A stretch of DNA of 64,000 nucleotides, from positions 5,421 to 69,420 of the IMG/VR virus record IMGVR_UViG_2597490064_000001; one strand, 5' to 3'. Source of the DNA: a virus. Taxonomy: Duplodnaviria > Caudoviricetes. Of this stretch, positions 1,807-47,216 are shown one piece after another (the stretch's first letter is position 1; each line of letters opens with the position of its first letter). The notes under the pieces are model-generated. The model was given only the letters and a program-made list of their open reading frames with translations, did not search any database and had not been told where the DNA came from. A program made the translations under genes and the position numbers.

Positions 1807-1879
1807 GGTGTGCTAGGCGCATCCTGACGTTTCAATGTATTCAGTTTTAGAATGATTGCAACATCAGGATTTCTTATGC

Positions 1880-3760
1880 ATGGCTGACGTTACACAAGGT
1901 GTGGACATGGTACAACTCGGCCATGGGACAGCGGGTGGCATTCGCGCTGATGGCCTGCAAAACGTGTTCACAGGCATGGGCACGACGCGCGATAAGACCA
2001 CACGTACTACTGTCAAGCCTGTCAGCTTTATGGGCCATGAAGACCTTGAGGGTCTTTATGCGCACTGGCTCATGCGCCGCATTGTCGACCTCGTGGCTGA
2101 TGAGAGCACCCGCGAGGGCCTTGAAATTTTGTTTGGCGGGGAGGGCGTGAATGCTGAGACACTTTCTGGCGTTGAGCAGGCCATTGAAGACTTAGAAATT
2201 CTGTCAAGCTTCAACGAGGCAGCTAAGACTTCACGACTGTATGGCGGTAGCGCACTGTTGCTTTACATCGATGATGGCCGTCCGTCTGATATGCCCGTTG
2301 ATCGCAACAACATTCGTGCTGTAGAGGGCATGGAATGCTTGGATCGGCACCAGATTGCGCCGGTTATCAGCGAAGACAGTCTTTACGATTATTCAAAGGC
2401 AACTTACTACCAGATTATTTCGGGCGATCTCATTCAACAGCCCAATCTCCGCGCCATCCATAAGGACAGGATTTTGCGCTTTGACGGCATCTGGCTGCCC
2501 TACCGCACTCGCCAGAAGAACTATGGCTGGGGCATGAGCGTACTGCAGAGCGTATTTGAAAGCTTCAATCACTACTACAGCGGCACTTCCTCCATTGCCA
2601 CCCTCCTTACTGAATTTGACATTTTCGTTCACAAGGTGCGTGGTCTGGCTTCGATGCTTGCTGCAGGCAAGGAAGGACAGGTGCGTGATCGCCTGCAATT
2701 GAACGACATGAGCAAGAGCATCTATCGCGGCTACGCGATTGATGCTGAAAAGGAAGAGCTGGCATTTGTAAGCCGCCATTTTGGCGGAGTGTCTGAAATT
2801 CTGGAAAAGCTGCGGCTTGACATCATTGCCGCATCTGGCATTCCCCATACATTGTTATTTGGCCAGTCGCCGTCAGGACTTGGTGCTACTGGCCGCTCGG
2901 AGGAACGCGACTTTGCCAAGGTTTGCCATCACTACCAGGAGACAAATTTCCGCAAGCCTCTGATGAAGCTGATGGAATACATCATGCTGAGCAAAATGGG
3001 GCCGACTGGCGGGAAAGTGCCCGACAACTGGCGCGTGAGCTTCAAGCCGCTGTTCGAGATGAATGAGCGGGAACTGGCGGACGTGCGGGCGCGTGTTGCT
3101 GCCGTGGATGCCCGCTACATCCAAGTGGGTGTGCTCACACCGCAGGAGGTGGCTGATAGCCGCTTCGGCAAGAGCGAATACAGCATTGAGACCACCATTG
3201 ATCCGTCCATCGTGCGGGAAATGCCCGACAAGGCGGGTAGTGGCGATGGAAAGATGGCAGTGCCCCCTGGTGGCCGCGATCCTCTGGATCAAGCCAACGG
3301 GAGCCTTCCGATGGATGGCACTCGTGAAGCCGCGCCTGACGATCAAACGATGGATGAAGCTGGGCTCTATCTCTCGCGGGATCTAGAGCACCAGCGTGGC
3401 GATGTGGAATTCAAGGACGAGGAACTCCACAAGAAGGCAATTGCTGCAGCGAAGGCCAAGTTCAAGACTTGGCCGAGCGCAGTGGCCGGTGCCTATGTAA
3501 CGCGAAAGTACAAGGAGTTGTATAAGCGCAAGCACGGCAGCATGGAAGGCGCCTTCAAGGGCAAGAAGGAGACTGCCGAATATTTCAAGGAGGATGCCAT
3601 CGAGCCGATGAAGGCTGAAGGGCTCATTCTTGGCGACATCGACGAGGCCTCCCTGATTTCCCAAGCCGATATTGATGCCGCATTGAATCAGTGGAAAGCG
3701 GAGGCGCCGGAGCGCTTCAAGGACATTCTGGAGGCTTCTGATGCTCAGCCCACTGAGTGA
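1880..3760 (+). CDS. Portal protein (DUF1073 family) with C-terminal extension
   Basis: RRIVDLVADESTR, RLYGGS, IHKDRILRF, WGMSVLQ, GIPHTLLFGQSPSGL and F.PL motifs typical of DUF1073 portals; first gene of the head module. Start placed at ATG 1880. Confidence 0.9.
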   Translation: MADVTQGVDMVQLGHGTAGGIRADGLQNVFTGMGTTRDKTTRTTVKPVSFMGHEDLEGLYAHWLMRRIVDLVADESTREGLEILFGGEGVNAETLSGVEQAIEDLEILSSFNEAAKTSRLYGGSALLLYIDDGRPSDMPVDRNNIRAVEGMECLDRHQIAPVISEDSLYDYSKATYYQIISGDLIQQPNLRAIHKDRILRFDGIWLPYRTRQKNYGWGMSVLQSVFESFNHYYSGTSSIATLLTEFDIFVHKVRGLASMLAAGKEGQVRDRLQLNDMSKSIYRGYAIDAEKEELAFVSRHFGGVSEILEKLRLDIIAASGIPHTLLFGQSPSGLGATGRSEERDFAKVCHHYQETNFRKPLMKLMEYIMLSKMGPTGGKVPDNWRVSFKPLFEMNERELADVRARVAAVDARYIQVGVLTPQEVADSRFGKSEYSIETTIDPSIVREMPDKAGSGDGKMAVPPGGRDPLDQANGSLPMDGTREAAPDDQTMDEAGLYLSRDLEHQRGDVEFKDEELHKKAIAAAKAKFKTWPSAVAGAYVTRKYKELYKRKHGSMEGAFKGKKETAEYFKEDAIEPMKAEGLILGDIDEASLISQADIDAALNQWKAEAPERFKDILEASDAQPTE

Positions 3761-4403
3761 TTCGTGGCCTCGGTTTGATGCCGAATGGTCATACGACACT
3801 AACCTGGGGCGCTACAGGCGCCCCTCTGGCCAATTTATGAGCCAGAAGGCTGTGATGGCGCTTGTCGATGGTCGCATCGACAAGCTTGGTCAGCAGCTAC
3901 GCCGTTTCACTCAAATGTTGGCCGATGGCAACATCACGATTGATCAGTGGCAAGGCAGTGTCCGCGAGGCAATTAAGGCTGCTCATATTCAAGCAACGGT
4001 GCTTGGGCATGGTGGCAAGGACGGTATGGGCAGCGCAGAGTATGGCCGCATCGGTCAAAGGCTTCGTGCAGAATACGGTTATCTTCAGAAGTTTGCTGGG
4101 GATATTCTGGCTGGTCGCGTTTCTACTGCCATGGCTCTTGCTCGTGTGCAGCTATATGCTGAGAGCGTGCGAGGTTCTTACTGGGAAGGCACCAGTATTC
4201 GCCAGGAACGACAGGGCTACTCCTTGATGCGTCGCATTCTCGATCCGCAAGCGCAGCATTGCGATGATTGCTTGCGTTACGCGAGGGCTGGATTGGTGTC
4301 GATGGGAAGCCTGCCAATGCCTGGTCAGCGCTGCGCGTGTCGTTCGCGGTGTCGTTGCAGTGTTGAATACAAGCGGAACGCCGTACCGACAGTCCCTGTC
4401 TAA
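3741..4403 (+). CDS. Minor head / head morphogenesis protein (SPP1 gp7 / MuF-like)
   Basis: Follows the portal; HCDDC...C.C.SRCRC C-terminal Cys motif. Confidence 0.7.
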   Translation: MLSPLSDSWPRFDAEWSYDTNLGRYRRPSGQFMSQKAVMALVDGRIDKLGQQLRRFTQMLADGNITIDQWQGSVREAIKAAHIQATVLGHGGKDGMGSAEYGRIGQRLRAEYGYLQKFAGDILAGRVSTAMALARVQLYAESVRGSYWEGTSIRQERQGYSLMRRILDPQAQHCDDCLRYARAGLVSMGSLPMPGQRCACRSRCRCSVEYKRNAVPTVPV

Positions 4404-4441: not shown

Positions 4442-5638
4442 ATGGCCAAGATTCTTTACTGCGGAGACGCTGCAGTTCAAACTGGATTCGGGCGGGTGGC
4501 AGAGAATCTGCTGCCTGAGCTGGCGAAAGAGCATGAAGTGGTGGTGCTCGCCGTCAACTGGTGGGGCGATCCGCATGAGCTGCCCTATCGGATGTATCCA
4601 GCTAATGCAGGCGGGGCCGATCCGTTCGGCTCCCATCGAATGCAGGAGCTTTTGATTAAGGAGAAGCCCGATCTGGTGTTTGCAGTGAATGATATTTGGG
4701 TGCTGAATAAGCTGTGGAAGGTGGCTAAGCCCCTTAAGGAGGGGATTGGCTTCAAGTGGTATGGCTACTTCCCTACTGACAGCTACGGCTTCTTTCCTGA
4801 GGTGTTTGAGGATTGCAAAGAGTGGGATGGCATGGCCACCTACACGCAGTTCGGCCTGGAAGAAGTGCGCAAGGCGGGTTGTGAAATGCCGTGCGATGTG
4901 ATCCCACATGGCATTGATCGTTCCACGTTCTTCCCCGTGAAGCAGGATGAAGCACGCAAAGCGATGGGCGTGCCCGAGGATCTATTTATCGTCTTTAATG
5001 GCAATCGCAATCAGCCACGTAAGCGCATTGATTTGACCATCAAAGCGTTCATTGCATTTGCGCTGGATAAGCCTGATGCTCGTCTGTGGCTCAACATGGG
5101 GCCGAAAGATCAGGGGTGGGATTTGATTCCTCTGTTTAAGCGCATTTCTCGTGACTATGGTTATGACCCTGCGGGCAAGTTGATTCTCACAAGCAAGGAC
5201 TTTGATGTGATGAATTGCCTGCCAATTGACAAGCTTAATCTTGTCTATAACGCTTGCGATGTTGGCGTTAATACTTGCATTGGCGAGGGTTGGGGTCTGG
5301 TGAATTTTGAGCACGCCGCCACGCGCACTGCTCAGATTGTTCCTGACCACACATCGTTGAAGGAGATCTTCAGCGGCATCCCGCGCATTCCCATCGAAAG
5401 CTGGGAAGTGGACTGTAATTATGGCTTGGACCGTGGCATTCCTTCCGTGAATGATTTTGTGGCCATTCTTAATAATTACTACGAGAATCGCGACAATCTT
5501 GACAAGGTGGCGCAATGGTGCTACGACGAGCTTCAGGATGAGAAGTATTCGTGGAGCACGATTGGGGCAAGCGTGGTTGAAATTATTAACAATGTCCTAA
5601 AAGAGCCCACTTCTGGCAAGGGCTTTGGCAATGACTAA
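4442..5638 (+). CDS. Glycosyltransferase, GT-B fold (GT4-like)
   Basis: TGFGRVAE N-terminus; VIPHGID; NRNQPRKRID; YNACDV...GEGWGLVNFE (E-x7-E motif). Confidence 0.9.
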   Translation: MAKILYCGDAAVQTGFGRVAENLLPELAKEHEVVVLAVNWWGDPHELPYRMYPANAGGADPFGSHRMQELLIKEKPDLVFAVNDIWVLNKLWKVAKPLKEGIGFKWYGYFPTDSYGFFPEVFEDCKEWDGMATYTQFGLEEVRKAGCEMPCDVIPHGIDRSTFFPVKQDEARKAMGVPEDLFIVFNGNRNQPRKRIDLTIKAFIAFALDKPDARLWLNMGPKDQGWDLIPLFKRISRDYGYDPAGKLILTSKDFDVMNCLPIDKLNLVYNACDVGVNTCIGEGWGLVNFEHAATRTAQIVPDHTSLKEIFSGIPRIPIESWEVDCNYGLDRGIPSVNDFVAILNNYYENRDNLDKVAQWCYDELQDEKYSWSTIGASVVEIINNVLKEPTSGKGFGND

Positions 5639-6896: not shown

Positions 6897-7412
6897 TTAG
6901 TACGCTTCAACGTGCTGCCATTGACGCCCCTTCTCGATATGCCCAATTGTTGTCCGCGTTACATTGAGCGCTTTTGCCAACATATTTCGGGAGAGATTTG
7001 GATGAGAGCGGAGAATTGCCTTGATTGCGGCTACTTGGTCTTCTGTTAACTTGCTTCTTCCGTTTCTCTCTCCTTTGTGTGTGCCGTGGATCACGGCGTC
7101 TTTGCAGTTCTCCTCTGGAGATCCCCATGCAAGATTTGACGCGCGATTGTCGCGACGGTCCCCGTTTAGATGCCTGACAACTTGGAAATCTTTAGGAGCG
7201 CCGTGAAATGCTTCGCATACAAGGCGATGTACTTGTCGAGTGAGTCCCGTTACCCCCTTTGGATAAAGTCCGACTTTGCCATACGGCCCAGACCAGTTGA
7301 TTTTCAAAAGAATTCGCCTGCCATTTTTATGCTTGCAAACACGACCTTGATCGCTTACCTCGTATAAGCCATCTGTTTCGACAATGGGGCGCCAGTTTTC
7401 TTTGTGATCCAT
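6897..7412 (-). CDS. NUMOD4-HNH homing endonuclease with C-terminal HTH
   Basis: ENWRPI...YEVSDQGRV (NUMOD4); VHRLVCEAFHG...VRHLNGDRRDNRASNL (HNH); KLTEDQV...W.HV tail; inserted antisense in the head module. Confidence 0.9.
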   Translation of the reverse strand: MDHKENWRPIVETDGLYEVSDQGRVCKHKNGRRILLKINWSGPYGKVGLYPKGVTGLTRQVHRLVCEAFHGAPKDFQVVRHLNGDRRDNRASNLAWGSPEENCKDAVIHGTHKGERNGRSKLTEDQVAAIKAILRSHPNLSRNMLAKALNVTRTTIGHIEKGRQWQHVEAY

Positions 7413-7452
7413 CGAACGATTGCTAGAATAAAATAAAGTGTAGCACGTCGCC

Positions 7453-7761
7453 ATGAGTTTAAAGCAAAAGCGTCAAAAAATTGCTCGTGTTTTGCGCGAA
7501 TTCAAAGCGGGCACCTTGAAGGGCAGTGATGGTAAGCCCGTGAAGAGCCGCCAGCAAGCGATTGCCATTGCAATGAGCGAAGCTGGCATGGAGAAGAAGG
7601 ATAAGAGCGACGCTTATTGGGACGCCTACATCGACACGATGTGTGGCTCGATGAGCAAGGAAGGTATGGAAGAGGAGGAGGAGGAAATGGATGCAAACCC
7701 GGCCGAAGCTCGCTGCAAGGGCTATTTGTCGAGCCTGCGTAAGCGCAGAAAAAAGGGCTAA
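7453..7761 (+). CDS. Small head-associated protein (DUF6496-like N-terminus, acidic tract)
   Basis: KIARVLREFKAGTLKGSDGKPVKSRQQAIAIAMSEAG resembles DUF6496; ends in a slippery site. Confidence 0.65.
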   Translation: MSLKQKRQKIARVLREFKAGTLKGSDGKPVKSRQQAIAIAMSEAGMEKKDKSDAYWDAYIDTMCGSMSKEGMEEEEEEMDANPAEARCKGYLSSLRKRRKKG

Positions 7762-7796: not shown

Positions 7797-8105
7797 GTGA
7801 GAAGTGCTGCGCGGCGCGGCCTTGAGCTGCGCCGAAAGCACGGCAAAGGAGGGCTGACTACTAAAGAAGCTGGAAAGCAAGGCATTGGAAGCGGCGTGGC
7901 ACGAGCCACGTCGCTAGCTAACGGGGACAAGGTTAGTGCGGAGACAATTCGTCGCATGGTTGCATTTTTCTCACGACACGAGAAAAATAAAAGCGGTGGG
8001 GAAGATGACGCCGGTTACATTGCATGGCTTCTATGGGGTGGCGATGCTGGTAAGTCTTGGGCAAATCGAACGCTTAGGATGCTGGAAAAGCGTCAACAAA
8101 AATGA
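7797..8105 (+). CDS. Basic head-associated domain (probably the frameshift extension of 7453)
   Basis: AARRGLELR...GVARATSLANG...TIRRMVAFFSRH...IAWLLWGGDAG domain recurrent in phage head modules; GTG start without SD; open frame extends back to the slippery site. Confidence 0.7.
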   Translation: MRSAARRGLELRRKHGKGGLTTKEAGKQGIGSGVARATSLANGDKVSAETIRRMVAFFSRHEKNKSGGEDDAGYIAWLLWGGDAGKSWANRTLRMLEKRQQK

Positions 8106-8767: not shown

Positions 8768-9964
8768 ATGAGCACCACATCTTGTCGGTACGACGTTTCT
8801 CCTATTGAGAAATACGAAATGACGCCGGAGGGTTACCTTCGCGTCTGGGCTTCGATTGCGCGTACCGGCATTCAGCATTACACCGATGCTGACGGTTCTA
8901 TCAGGAAGGAATTCCGTCCTGAAACTGAAGTGGCGTCTCCAGAAAGCCTTGCCTCATTTGCGGGCAAAGCTATCACTATGGAACATCCTCCTGTCCTTCT
9001 GGACAGTGAGAACACCAAGGATTACCAGATCGGCTTCACTGGTTCAGAAATTGTCTATGACAATGGCTTTGTAAAGGCCGTCATGACGGTTACTGATCGT
9101 GAAACCATTGATAAGGTGATGCGCGGCGATGTTCGAGAAGTGAGCGCCGGCTATAGGGTCAACTATGATCCGACGCCTGGCGTTACCGATAGTGGCGAGC
9201 ATTACGACGGCATCCAAACGGAGATCAGTGGTAATCACGTCGCTATCGTTCGTCGGGGCCGAGCCGGCCCGCAGGTGAGGTTGCATTTGGATCGCCAAGA
9301 TGCTGCCGACCCCTCTCTAATTTCCAATGAGGAAACTAAAACTATGAGCGCAAAGGTCGTTTTCGACGGCGCCGAGTTTGAGGTGAGCGAGAGCGTTGCT
9401 CTGGCGATCACCAAAGAACGCGATGACGCCAAGATGTCCTACGAGGACATGAAGAAGAAGTACGACGAGCTGCAGGCCGCTGCTGATTCCATGAAGGCCG
9501 AAATGGACGCCATGGAAGAAGAAATGAAGGGCAAAATGGACGGGGCCGAAGGTCGCGCCGATGCCCTGGCCGAGCAAGTCGATGCTCTGAAGGCCGAGCT
9601 GGAAGAAGCCAAGCAAATCAACGTGGATTCCATTGTTGAAGAGCGCCTGGCCCTCATCTCCCAGGCCAAGCCTGTGCTGGATGCCGCTTATGAATTCAGC
9701 GGCAAGAGCGCCCGTGAAGTGATGGTTGACGCCATCAAGGCAGTTCGCGGCGACTCTATTGCTCTGGACGAGCGTTCCGACGATTATGTCCAGGCAATGT
9801 TCGACACCATCTCTGAAGATGCTGCCAACCGTGCCGATTCCACCGAGGATCTGCGCAAGGCAGTGGCTTCCATTGCCACCCCTGCTTCTGCTCCTTCTTC
9901 GTATATCGAGAAGCTGCAGAACGCTTGGAAGTCCCCTCTCTCCATCTCTAAGGAGGCTAAGTAA
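8768..9964 (+). CDS. Prohead protease/scaffold (DUF2213 family)
   Basis: TPEGYL, IARTG, SLASFAGKAITMEHP, EVSAGY, NHVAIVRRGRAG; coiled-coil scaffold C-terminus. Confidence 0.9.
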   Translation: MSTTSCRYDVSPIEKYEMTPEGYLRVWASIARTGIQHYTDADGSIRKEFRPETEVASPESLASFAGKAITMEHPPVLLDSENTKDYQIGFTGSEIVYDNGFVKAVMTVTDRETIDKVMRGDVREVSAGYRVNYDPTPGVTDSGEHYDGIQTEISGNHVAIVRRGRAGPQVRLHLDRQDAADPSLISNEETKTMSAKVVFDGAEFEVSESVALAITKERDDAKMSYEDMKKKYDELQAAADSMKAEMDAMEEEMKGKMDGAEGRADALAEQVDALKAELEEAKQINVDSIVEERLALISQAKPVLDAAYEFSGKSAREVMVDAIKAVRGDSIALDERSDDYVQAMFDTISEDAANRADSTEDLRKAVASIATPASAPSSYIEKLQNAWKSPLSISKEAK

Positions 9965-9967
9965 TCC

Positions 9968-10537
9968 ATGGCCGTAACCTTTACTCCCACTCCTGGCGCT
10001 GGTGGTGGCGTTCAATCCAGCTATGAGCTGGAGCTGACTGCTGCTCTGGAAGGCCAGTTTGCTGACATTGCTAACAACAACGTCGCCACTTTCATCAACG
10101 AAACCGGCGCTGGCATCGCTTATGGCGACCTGCTGGTGGTGAACGGTGGTGGCACCGTGGGTAACTCCGCTAAGACCATTGCTGCTACTGGTGACACCGT
10201 GGTGGGCGTTAACGCTCTCACCTACATCGAAGAATCTTCTCTCGATGCCAACGGTCGTCCCGCTGCTTCCGACACTCAGGCTCTGAATGTTGTGAACCAG
10301 GGCGTGGTTGCCGTCTACGTGACTGGCGCTGTTGACCTCACCTCCCCCGTGCGCGTGTACTACACCACACACACTGGCACCACCGCTGGTGCCCACCCCG
10401 GTCGCTTCTCTCACGCTTTCGTGAGCGGTAAGACCCGCCGTCTGACTGGCGCCCGTTGGGTGTCTAAGACCACTGGCGCTGGTATTGCCCTGCTGGAGCT
10501 GAACGGCCCCGATTTCACCCTTGCTGCTGATTCCTGA
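9968..10537 (+). CDS. Capsid decoration / cement protein
   Basis: Small beta-rich Gly/Ala/Thr protein between DUF2213 and the major capsid gene; strong codon bias. Confidence 0.75.
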   Translation: MAVTFTPTPGAGGGVQSSYELELTAALEGQFADIANNNVATFINETGAGIAYGDLLVVNGGGTVGNSAKTIAATGDTVVGVNALTYIEESSLDANGRPAASDTQALNVVNQGVVAVYVTGAVDLTSPVRVYYTTHTGTTAGAHPGRFSHAFVSGKTRRLTGARWVSKTTGAGIALLELNGPDFTLAADS

Positions 10538-10549
10538 TAGGAGGACACC

Positions 10550-11464
10550 ATGAGCGAATTTCGTATGGATGAAGCGGGTCTGTTTCTTGAGCGTCAGCTT
10601 GAGTACATCCGCCCGCAAGTGTTTGAAGTCGAGTATGCCGACATCAAATACCCCACAATTCTGCCTGTGACTAGCGAAGCTGGTCCTGGCGCCCAGACCT
10701 TCACCTACCGCATCCTGGATGCCACTGGTGACTTCAAGCTCATCTCTGACGCTGCAGACGATCTGCCGCGTGCTGATGTGAGCCAAACCGAAAAGAGCAT
10801 CAACATCCGCTCCTTCGGTGGTTCCTTCGGTTACACCGTGCAGGAACTGCGTGCAGCTCAAATGGGCAATGTGGCCCTGGAGCAGCGCCGCGCCGCCGCT
10901 GTGCGTCGCGCCTATGAGGAGAAAGTTGAGAGCGTGGCTCTGTTCGGTGAATCCTCTGTTGGCCTGGCCGGTTTCTTCAACAATGCCGGCGTTGACGTGC
11001 TGGCCGCTGACAAGTGGTTCACTGGCGCTACCGCCACTGGCACCACTGCTCAGGACATGCTGGAGCTGCTGAACCAGGGTGTGACAGCCATTATCAATGG
11101 CTCCAACATGAAGGAGCAGCCCGACACCATTCTGATGGCTTGGGAAGATTACAACGTGGTTTCGACCACTCGTAACTCTGACTCTTCGGATGTGACTGTG
11201 CTGGAGTATTTCCTGCGCACCAATCCCTTCATCCGTAACGTTGAGCCCATCAACCAGCTTGATGCTGACAAGAGCAGCCTCAGCAAGAACCGGATGGTCA
11301 TCTACAAGCGTGATCCCGGCAAAGTGCAACTGCACATCCCTCAGCCTCTTGAACTGTTCCCGCCTCAGCAGCGCGGCCTGGAATTCATTGTTCCGGCTCA
11401 TGCTCGCGTGGGTGGCGTCGCTCTGTACTATCCGAAGAGCGTCGTTTACGTTCAGGCTCCCTGA
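10550..11464 (+). CDS. Major capsid protein (DUF2184 / HK97 fold)
   Basis: FLERQLEYIRPQV, DDLPRAD, FGYTVQELRAA, ARVGGV..YYP; SD AGGAGG; highly biased codons. Confidence 0.9.
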   Translation: MSEFRMDEAGLFLERQLEYIRPQVFEVEYADIKYPTILPVTSEAGPGAQTFTYRILDATGDFKLISDAADDLPRADVSQTEKSINIRSFGGSFGYTVQELRAAQMGNVALEQRRAAAVRRAYEEKVESVALFGESSVGLAGFFNNAGVDVLAADKWFTGATATGTTAQDMLELLNQGVTAIINGSNMKEQPDTILMAWEDYNVVSTTRNSDSSDVTVLEYFLRTNPFIRNVEPINQLDADKSSLSKNRMVIYKRDPGKVQLHIPQPLELFPPQQRGLEFIVPAHARVGGVALYYPKSVVYVQAP

Positions 11465-11528
11465 GGAAGCCCTTAGGTAGTTTGTCAAGAATGGGCGGCT
11501 AAGCTTATCAAGTTTGTTAATTCAACAA

Positions 11529-46709: not shown

Positions 46710-47216
46710 TCATATATTTACGTGCGTCCAGATTTTACCCATGCGGATGCTGCTTATCAAGCTCTTGCTGACACCATACTGATCAGCCAGTTCATAAATC
46801 GTCACCCCCTGCGCTTTGCGTATTGCGATCACTTGGTCCTCTGTCAGCTTTGCGTTCATGTTGGACGCTCCGCGCTTCATAACAGAATTACCAGCCCTGT
46901 TTCCTTTGATTTTGTCATTGAAATTATCCTTGTGAGTGCCAAGTAAAAGATGCGTCGGATTGCAACAAGCTGGATTGTGACACATATGTCGCACTACAAG
47001 CCCTTCGGGAATTTGCCCAAAAGCAAATTCCCAGGCAAGTCTATGGGTGGCACGAGTTCTTCTTTTGCCATTAACAAACTCCGTGATTTGCCCGTAGCCA
47101 TTCCCGCGAAAAGCGCCGCACCATGGCCAGCATTGATGGTCCTGTCTTCTTTTAACAGAAAGGGAAAAGCGGTCATAAAGAGATGTTTGGCCAGAAGGTA
47201 TACGCAGAGGAAACAT
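46710..47216 (-). CDS. HNH homing endonuclease
   Basis: CWPWCG...GYG...HRLAWE...VRHMCHNPACCNPTHL..GT..DN; KLTEDQV HTH tail; adjacent to thyX. Confidence 0.9.
   Translation of the reverse strand: MFPLRIPSGQTSLYDRFSLSVKRRQDHQCWPWCGAFRGNGYGQITEFVNGKRRTRATHRLAWEFAFGQIPEGLVVRHMCHNPACCNPTHLLLGTHKDNFNDKIKGNRAGNSVMKRGASNMNAKLTEDQVIAIRKAQGVTIYELADQYGVSKSLISSIRMGKIWTHVNI

Follow-up and report, generated by a model that had tools for sequence, protein, structure and literature searches.

The window analyzed here is a 64,000-nucleotide stretch of a siphovirus-like phage genome (Duplodnaviria; Caudoviricetes; IMG/VR record IMGVR_UViG_2597490064_000001, positions 5,421 to 69,420), and its portal protein carries, behind the portal core, a 13-residue near copy of the N-terminus of the major capsid protein of the same phage. 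We lean toward the interpretation that this portal motif is a processing or docking site shared among the substrates of the head protease, which would free the cargo at the C-terminal end of the portal. The motif would then be a copy of the maturation junction of the capsid protein, made up of an Asp cut site and the first ~10 residues of the mature N-arm. The head genes lie on the plus strand, and the elements on which the argument turns are the following:

1856-3760, plus strand: portal gene, 634 amino acids, with a TTG start as listed; it encodes the core, then a linker, then a C-terminal cargo tail
3350-3388, plus strand: portal motif MDEAGLYLSRDLE, portal residues 499-511, with Asp500 (nucleotides 3353-3355), AGL(Y/F)L and Asp509 (nucleotides 3380-3382)
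8768-9964, plus strand: gene for a head-maturation protease (DUF2213, by annotation) fused to a coiled-coil scaffold, 398 amino acids
10550-11464, plus strand: major capsid protein gene, 304 amino acids (Pfam PF09950, E = 3.5e-57; phrog_264)
10565-10603, plus strand: capsid copy of the motif, MDEAGLFLERQLE, capsid residues 6-18, with Asp7 (nucleotides 10568-10570) and then the conserved start of the N-arm

The portal and capsid segments are identical at 10 of 13 residues and 28 of 39 nucleotides, with mostly synonymous nucleotide differences, and no similarity between the two proteins extends beyond the 13-mer on either flank. When both proteins were shuffled 1,000 times, the best 13-mer identity was 5 (15 shuffles), 6 (701), 7 (266), or 8 (18), and never 9 or 10. 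In an all-against-all comparison of 82 open reading frames (ORFs) from the window (19,226 amino acids), this was the sole match of at least 10/13 apart from three evident pairs of paralogs. Twenty shuffled proteomes yielded no match of at least 10/13, and matches of at least 9/13 occurred at a mean of 1.0 per proteome. An earlier sequence-only reading of the window had described the 10/13 match; its coordinates proved right, and the match stands at a level that the shuffles never reached.

Two observations concern the ORF set itself. The three paralogous pairs are adjacent genes (39448-40335/40332-41054, 41101-41949/41993-42856, and 27130-28680/28690-30777) that share long, near-identical peptides of up to 12/13; they are tandem paralogs in the tail or tail-fiber region. 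A 723-amino-acid open frame on the minus strand (9317-11488), which lies antisense to the genes for scaffold, cement, and capsid, was excluded from the set; it most likely arises from codon usage and does not represent a gene.

Conservation of the motif was followed in portals retrieved by scans of IMG/VR, which returned loci with portals 62-97% identical to that of the window. The clade set comprised 166 portal loci that were at least 60% identical and covered the motif region, some of them repeat fetches of one contig. The motif is kept in 165 of the 166, in the form of 60 distinct 15-mers: 160 loci fit the core pattern G[LIVM][FYHW][LMIV]..[DQENS][LIVM][EDQK], five are GLLL variants, and one (L184) is without the segment. 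An Asp stands 1-4 residues ahead of the motif Gly in all 160 core-pattern loci, and portal Asp500 is nearly invariant inside the clade. In the exceptional L184 portal (5200-5480), AGL..DLE has been lost in frame (REVAD-STKE-DVEFKD), and the upstream Asp (EVAD↓S, where the arrow follows the Asp) and the DUF5872 part of the tail are retained. The loss of the copied residues together with the retention of the Asp would count in favor of a site centered on that Asp.

On the capsid side, D7, A9, L11-L13, and R15-E18 are invariant among 25 clade capsids. Fifty loci hold both genes, representing 27 distinct pairs; between their portal and capsid 13-mers, 6-11 of 13 residues agree, with DNA identity at only 18-25 of 36 bases. 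Because nucleotide identity is so low, selection on the protein, and not recent gene conversion, keeps the two segments alike, in agreement with the maintenance at protein level that the sequence-only reading had proposed. Co-variation of the two segments, which the same reading had put forward as a check, had almost no power, because the capsid motif is nearly invariant across the 25 capsids. The only co-change occurs in L132 and L134, where one extra residue lies between the Asp and AGL in both proteins, and it represents a single evolutionary event.

Homologous capsids indicate what the copied segment corresponds to. The solved relatives of the window capsid are those of Pam3 (8hdt, E = 1e-32) and T1 (9kzj, E = 1.4e-27). 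Across 10 aligned capsid lineages, the N-terminal extensions are of very different lengths (~7-50 amino acids), and in nine of the 10 an Asp lies 1-5 residues before the start of the N-arm, G-h-(F/W)-x-x-(R/K/S/Q)-(Q/E/A)-L; the exception is Pam3, whose Asp is farther upstream. In coliphage TLS, the available part of the published report gives the N-terminus of the virion capsid protein, determined by Edman sequencing, as ASDMGIW (PMC11447400). This sequence maps to residues 28-34 of the deposited TLS protein and is preceded by RGAKND27. The T1 capsid protein gp47 was modeled from residue 27, over residues 27-319, in the accessible portion of that study (PMC11945409). Residues 25-27 of the T1 protein are Q-D-A, and the first modeled residue, Ala27, directly follows Asp26. 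In the alignment, residues 9-23 of the window capsid correspond to residues 31-45 of T1, which fall within the modeled mature N-arm.

Relatives of TLS and T1 resemble the window in gene content. Tlsvirus SP126 encodes a DUF2213 protease, a PF06381 portal, and a PF09950 capsid, as the window does, and the T1-like phage ADB-2 has a DUF2213 protease. Capsid maturation in T1 and TLS (Drexlerviridae) is thus comparable to what we propose here: the head module is the same, and a cut would fall after an Asp just upstream of the N-arm (FRMD7↓EAGLF in the window). An Asp in the P1 position agrees with the TLS site that was mapped experimentally, with an alignment offset of 2-3 residues. This homology makes a cut of the window capsid after Asp7 probable, which would leave a mature N-terminus that begins EAGLFLERQLE. 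The T1 and TLS portals differ from that of the window in having neither a cargo tail nor a copy of the junction.

The context of the motif in the portal fits a site of this kind. The tail that follows the portal core holds these features:

3164-3406, plus strand: predicted disordered linker, portal residues 437-517 (AlphaFold 2), which holds the conserved block and the motif
3260-3325, plus strand: conserved linker block VPPGGRDPLDQANGSLPMDG(S/T)R, portal residues 469-490
3416-3592, plus strand: cargo, the N-terminal half of a DUF5872 domain, portal residues 521-579, with two predicted helices
3644-3742, plus strand: conserved C-terminal helices of the portal tail, DIDEA...WK.EAPERFKDILEA, kept in portals 40-53% identical (P0122 and P0126)

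The portal core matches Pfam PF06381 (Phage_portal_3) over residues 67-418 (E = 2.5e-63), and the phrog_146 portal match spans residues 28-596. The AlphaFold 2 model of the portal was poor overall (mean predicted local distance difference test [pLDDT] of 50.8) and was used for disorder and helices alone. Residues 437-517 have pLDDT values below 50 and no secondary structure, and helices are predicted at residues 522-535 and 542-560, which form the first half of the DUF5872 domain, and at residues 603-629. The motif is, as far as the model goes, a short linear element at the boundary between the predicted disordered linker and the cargo, because the core ends at residue 418, residues 437-517 are predicted to be disordered, and swappable cargo lies downstream. 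Its position after the core and a low-complexity linker had been noted in the sequence-only reading, and the Pfam and AlphaFold 2 boundaries agree with it. A predicted disordered region is what would be expected of a cleavage or docking site.

The linker block was compared in 29 portals, including P0122 (51% identical), and G472, G473, D475, P476, G482, and G488 are invariant in all of them. This block is conserved more strongly than the portal motif, and it may be a second linear motif.

The PF06381 core and the half DUF5872 domain lie in one polypeptide, and the cargo domains are swapped among relatives. In the window portal the DUF5872 match is weak (Pfam E = 0.024, under the curated cut-off); the domain is clear in aligned relatives (P0121, E = 3.6e-12; L019 portal tail, E = 1e-12). 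At the same place, other portals carry the rest of DUF5872 plus DUF3721 (L019), InPase (P0147), or Acb1 (Pam3). In the Pam3 portal (L196, 2272-4137), the Acb1 anti-CBASS nuclease domain (PF23474) occupies residues 471-616 (E = 5.5e-29). The same fusion may explain why P0002, a plain PF06381 portal, is named "anti-CBASS protein Acb1 family protein". The company of DUF5872, DUF3721, InPase, and Acb1 in relatives suggests that the cargo is of the packaged-effector kind. A free gene of the window (7797-8105, plus strand) encodes a protein 55% identical (E = 6e-35) to residues 508-610 of the P0168 portal tail (an RRGLELRR-type domain), so this module is free in the window and portal-fused elsewhere. 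The neighboring ORF (7453-7761, plus strand) encodes a DUF6496 protein.

In the mechanism that we propose, the DUF2213 protease-scaffold would be enclosed in the prohead with the portal tail, and the protease would most likely recognize the portal copy as it does the N-terminus of the capsid protein. A cut after Asp500, or perhaps after the superfamily-wide Asp509 in addition or in its place, would detach a DUF5872-type tail of ~125-135 residues as a free internal head protein. The same protease would cut the capsid N-terminus and its own scaffold part. Cleavage of the window portal at the motif is the most likely outcome suggested by these comparisons. The portal site of the clade copies the capsid site far into the primed side, perhaps since those residues aid recognition. 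Of the explanations offered by the sequence-only reading, the shared maturation-protease site is the best supported; its support comes by homology (the TLS Edman sequence, the T1 model, and the common head module) and not by direct demonstration.

By annotation, a head-maturation protease gene is present in the window head module: DUF2213 matches residues 18-172 of the protease-scaffold (E = 2.5e-44), and the protein falls in phrog_530, "head maturation protease". The protease-scaffold itself holds candidate Asp sites at LDRQD178↓AADP (nucleotides 9287-9316), GRAD265↓A, and NRAD357↓ST. The DRQD↓AADP site lies directly after the DUF2213 domain and is conserved in the window clade. An Asp site is found in three window proteins that would be enclosed in the prohead, namely, the portal (TMD↓EAGLY), the capsid (RMD↓EAGLF), and the protease-scaffold (RQD↓AADP). 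Similar sets occur in relatives, where the site in the protease again directly follows the DUF2213 domain: L121 has DRMD↓ASD in the protease and KMD↓AAD in the portal tail, and in Pam3 the protease has IGD↓AD, the portal tail VTD↓AT, and the capsid TGD↓AM. The sites in the scaffold part, GRAD↓A (residues 263-266) and NRAD↓ST (residues 355-358), are candidates for self-processing; for NRAD↓ST, L121 has PRAD↓ST as its counterpart, and R.DS is the consensus of the clade at this position.

Beyond the clade, the extended motif gives way to a shorter site. Among 150 portal-family representatives at most 63% identical to the window portal, only P0121 (63%) keeps the motif (AGLFLPRDLE). Distant portal tails have a short site of the (K/Q)(Q/T)-D-(S/A) type after an acidic or Gly-rich linker and before the cargo, with examples such as KQD↓S, KTD↓S, KTD↓SAD, QKD↓S, KMD↓A, and KMD↓AAD. 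The pattern [KRQT][QKTNM]D[SA] was present in 31 of 83 representative tails, compared with a mean of 7.6 (maximum of 16) over 200 shuffles. These sites resemble the capsid sites of T1 (KQD↓A) and TLS (KND↓A).

Few distant portals could be paired with their cognate capsids. A search with P0125 returned one locus (L121), a search with P0129 returned none, and two alignment-based scans of viral contigs mostly recovered the window clade again. Five loci, cyanobacterial or other, came from a scan of genome contigs, and no capsid was within reach in any of them; L122, L123, and L137 had no recognizable capsid either. Two further resemblances were dropped as too short to have meaning: one between the last helix of the portal and the scaffold's C-terminus (both W-K), and one to the end of the T1 portal (APE.FK).

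Several points weigh against a shared protease site. The protease activity of DUF2213 is an annotation, and a limited literature search found no experimental test of it. A minimal protease site leaves the ~10 copied residues after the Asp unexplained; L121 and Pam3 share the Asp site alone, and the ten further residues are shared only in the window clade. When an N-arm profile built from nine distant capsids was run against 271 portals, the clade motif ranked first, at 0-3 bits, which is not significant. The superfamily-wide Asp aligns to window Asp509 (SRD↓LE), and Asp500 is conserved only in the clade. Asp509 is invariant in one portal alignment and present in at least 90% of 22 superfamily portals in another. 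The position of the portal cut is therefore ambiguous, and a cut after Asp509 would place Leu at P1', compared with Ser or Ala in relatives. The pattern used to list the sites in the protease-scaffold was chosen after the sites had been seen. On the capsid side, the Edman sequence of TLS maps to the removal of 27 residues, and the consulted part of the TLS paper surmises that 45 are removed (PMC11447400). The start of the T1 model could reflect disorder instead of cleavage, and window Asp7 is offset by 2-3 residues from T1 Asp26 and TLS Asp27 in the alignment. Finally, the propeptide of the window capsid would be only 7 residues long, compared with 26-27 in T1 and TLS.

An AlphaFold 2 model of the window capsid, based on 25 close sequences, had a mean pLDDT of 36.3 and was left out of fold searches and of any reading of N-arm conformation. 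In phage E217, the portal was modeled for residues 97-528 of 765, and capsid residues 1-65 were unseen (PMC10329688). The papers on JBD30 (PMC11445458) and on the NBD2/MED16 tail tube (PMC13576161) contained nothing on the junction question, nor did the GP4 capsid paper (PMC9698820), whose subject is another capsid protein.

The sequence-only reading had also offered an arm that mimics the capsid and either nucleates shell assembly or binds scaffold. On this alternative, the residues that follow the Asp would serve binding and not cutting. The portal tail would then present the start of the capsid N-arm to the partners of N-arms in the prohead, whether the scaffold end of the protease-scaffold, a neighboring capsid subunit, the cement protein, or empty sites around the portal vertex. 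This would draw the portal into the growing shell or hold the tail and its cargo in place. In P22 and 80alpha, scaffold is known to bind the N-arms of the coat protein. Eight of the 10 identities fall after the Asp, in a segment that is retained in the mature T1 N-arm (T1 residues 31-40), and this post-Asp segment is kept in 165 of 166 clade loci. The ~50-residue predicted disordered linker could reach the shell, and the additional residue that L132 and L134 have between Asp and AGL, in portal and capsid alike, also fits, as one event. However, most clade portal motifs contain a Pro (GLYLPRDLE) where the capsid has E, D, Q, or S, so the two copies are unlikely to form the same helix. L184 does without the segment, and beyond ~63% identity it survives in one of 150 representatives, the others keeping the Asp site only. 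In addition, the Pam3 N-arm lies with the N-loop of the cement protein above the E-loops of the mature shell, according to the part of that report at hand (PMC9942802), a position that we read as outside the shell and beyond the reach of an internal tail. We regard such mimicry as unlikely. About equally doubtful is a broader version, in which the junction copy is a general, selected code for portal-borne cargo and the N-arm start docks the cargo on N-arm sites or on the scaffold; if it were true, anti-defense cargo would be parked beside the exit channel at the portal vertex and would leave first at infection.

A somewhat smaller chance attaches to the absence of any shared function, with each segment conserved for its own reasons and the likeness due to coincidence or to the trace of an old duplication. 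The extended similarity is restricted to one clade, co-variation was uninformative, and the N-arm profile test was not significant. A rough analytic estimate puts the proteome-wide expectation of a 10/13 match at ~0.05-0.1, a figure to be read beside the zero found in 20 shuffled proteomes. Coincidence fits poorly with the placement of both copies immediately behind a conserved Asp at the end of a variable or disordered stretch, with the enclosure of both proteins with the head protease, and with the persistence of 6-11 of 13 residues over 27 distinct pairs despite nucleotide identities of 18-25 of 36. The sequence-only reading had also suggested an internal translation start at Met499, from which a separate 136-amino-acid protein with a capsid-like beginning would be made. 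The window and its closest relatives do have an ATG at 3350. This suggestion did not hold up, because Met499 is not conserved: most of the clade has A, L, N, E, Q, V, or another residue in its place. Moreover, no AGGAGG-like ribosome-binding site lies upstream of 3350, unlike at the capsid ATG, which has AGGAGG 6 bases upstream, and the frame is continuous with the portal in every locus but L039, where the gene is split over two frames. An internal start is highly improbable.

A shared head-protease site, the reading that we favor, has parallels in well-studied phages. In T4, the prohead protease gp21 cuts at (L/I)-x-E sites, and a capsid targeting sequence directs internal proteins that are later injected. 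As in T4, the window would have one head protease with several enclosed substrates, a shared short motif, and internal proteins that are freed. In T4, free proteins are loaded by means of the targeting peptide, a tag at their N-terminus, whereas the window cargo would be loaded as part of the portal, and what is shared in the window consists of an Asp site and the copied start of the capsid N-arm, unlike the T4 tag. A capsid targeting sequence of the T4 type was considered for the portal motif and rejected: the motif is internal (residue 499 of 634) and its Met is not conserved, so no free protein would be made. Portals are trimmed by head proteases in lambda (gpB), P2 (gpQ), and T5 (pb7), and the window portal would likewise be a substrate of the prohead protease. 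To our knowledge, the cuts in lambda, P2, and T5 remove short N-terminal pieces and not C-terminal cargo, and we know of no report of a copied capsid junction in these phages.

Portal fusions to InPase, 2H, and PBECR domains have been described among polyvalent proteins, in which effector domains are joined to a portal or MuF domain and which are expected to be packaged and injected (Iyer, Burroughs, Anand, de Souza, and Aravind, 2017; PMC5512222, in the sections available). The window portal family is likewise fused to small, swappable domains. For polyvalent proteins, the available sections discuss release through the proteins' own metallopeptidase domains and mention no head-protease cut at a copy of a capsid junction (PMC5512222). 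Taken singly, cleavage motifs common to several prohead-protease substrates, the trimming of portals, and cargo fused to portals are all known already. A copy of the capsid junction ahead of portal-borne cargo was not found described in a limited literature search that covered few subscription journals; the statement in the sequence-only reading that no description was known holds within that search and no wider. What we add is the link between the portal motif and the mapped Asp site of TLS and T1, together with the conservation counts.

The remaining genes of the head block include two further structural genes:

3741-4403, plus strand: MuF-like head morphogenesis gene
9968-10537, plus strand: cement (decoration) protein gene (Pfam PF22758, Phage_cement, E = 3.4e-18)

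The interval between the MuF-like gene and the protease holds two glycosyltransferase-like genes, a methyltransferase gene, an HNH endonuclease gene, and three small genes. The HNH endonuclease ORF (6897-7454, minus strand), with NUMOD4 and helix-turn-helix domains by Pfam, interrupts the head gene block. An ORF at 46710-47216 (minus strand) has the peptide KLTEDQV.AI in common with it and may be a second copy. Downstream of the capsid gene lie neck and tail genes, including that of a tape measure protein of 1451 amino acids.

Along with their DNA, phages inject small proteins that were packed in the head, and several of the domains carried on portal tails are anti-defense enzymes (Acb1) or may prove to be such. 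If this cargo is released by the head protease at a copy of the capsid maturation site, that site would predict the starts of mature internal proteins in thousands of uncultured aquatic phages and would offer a handle for loading foreign proteins into capsids. Prohead proteases, for which few specificities are known, would also gain an Asp-specific one.

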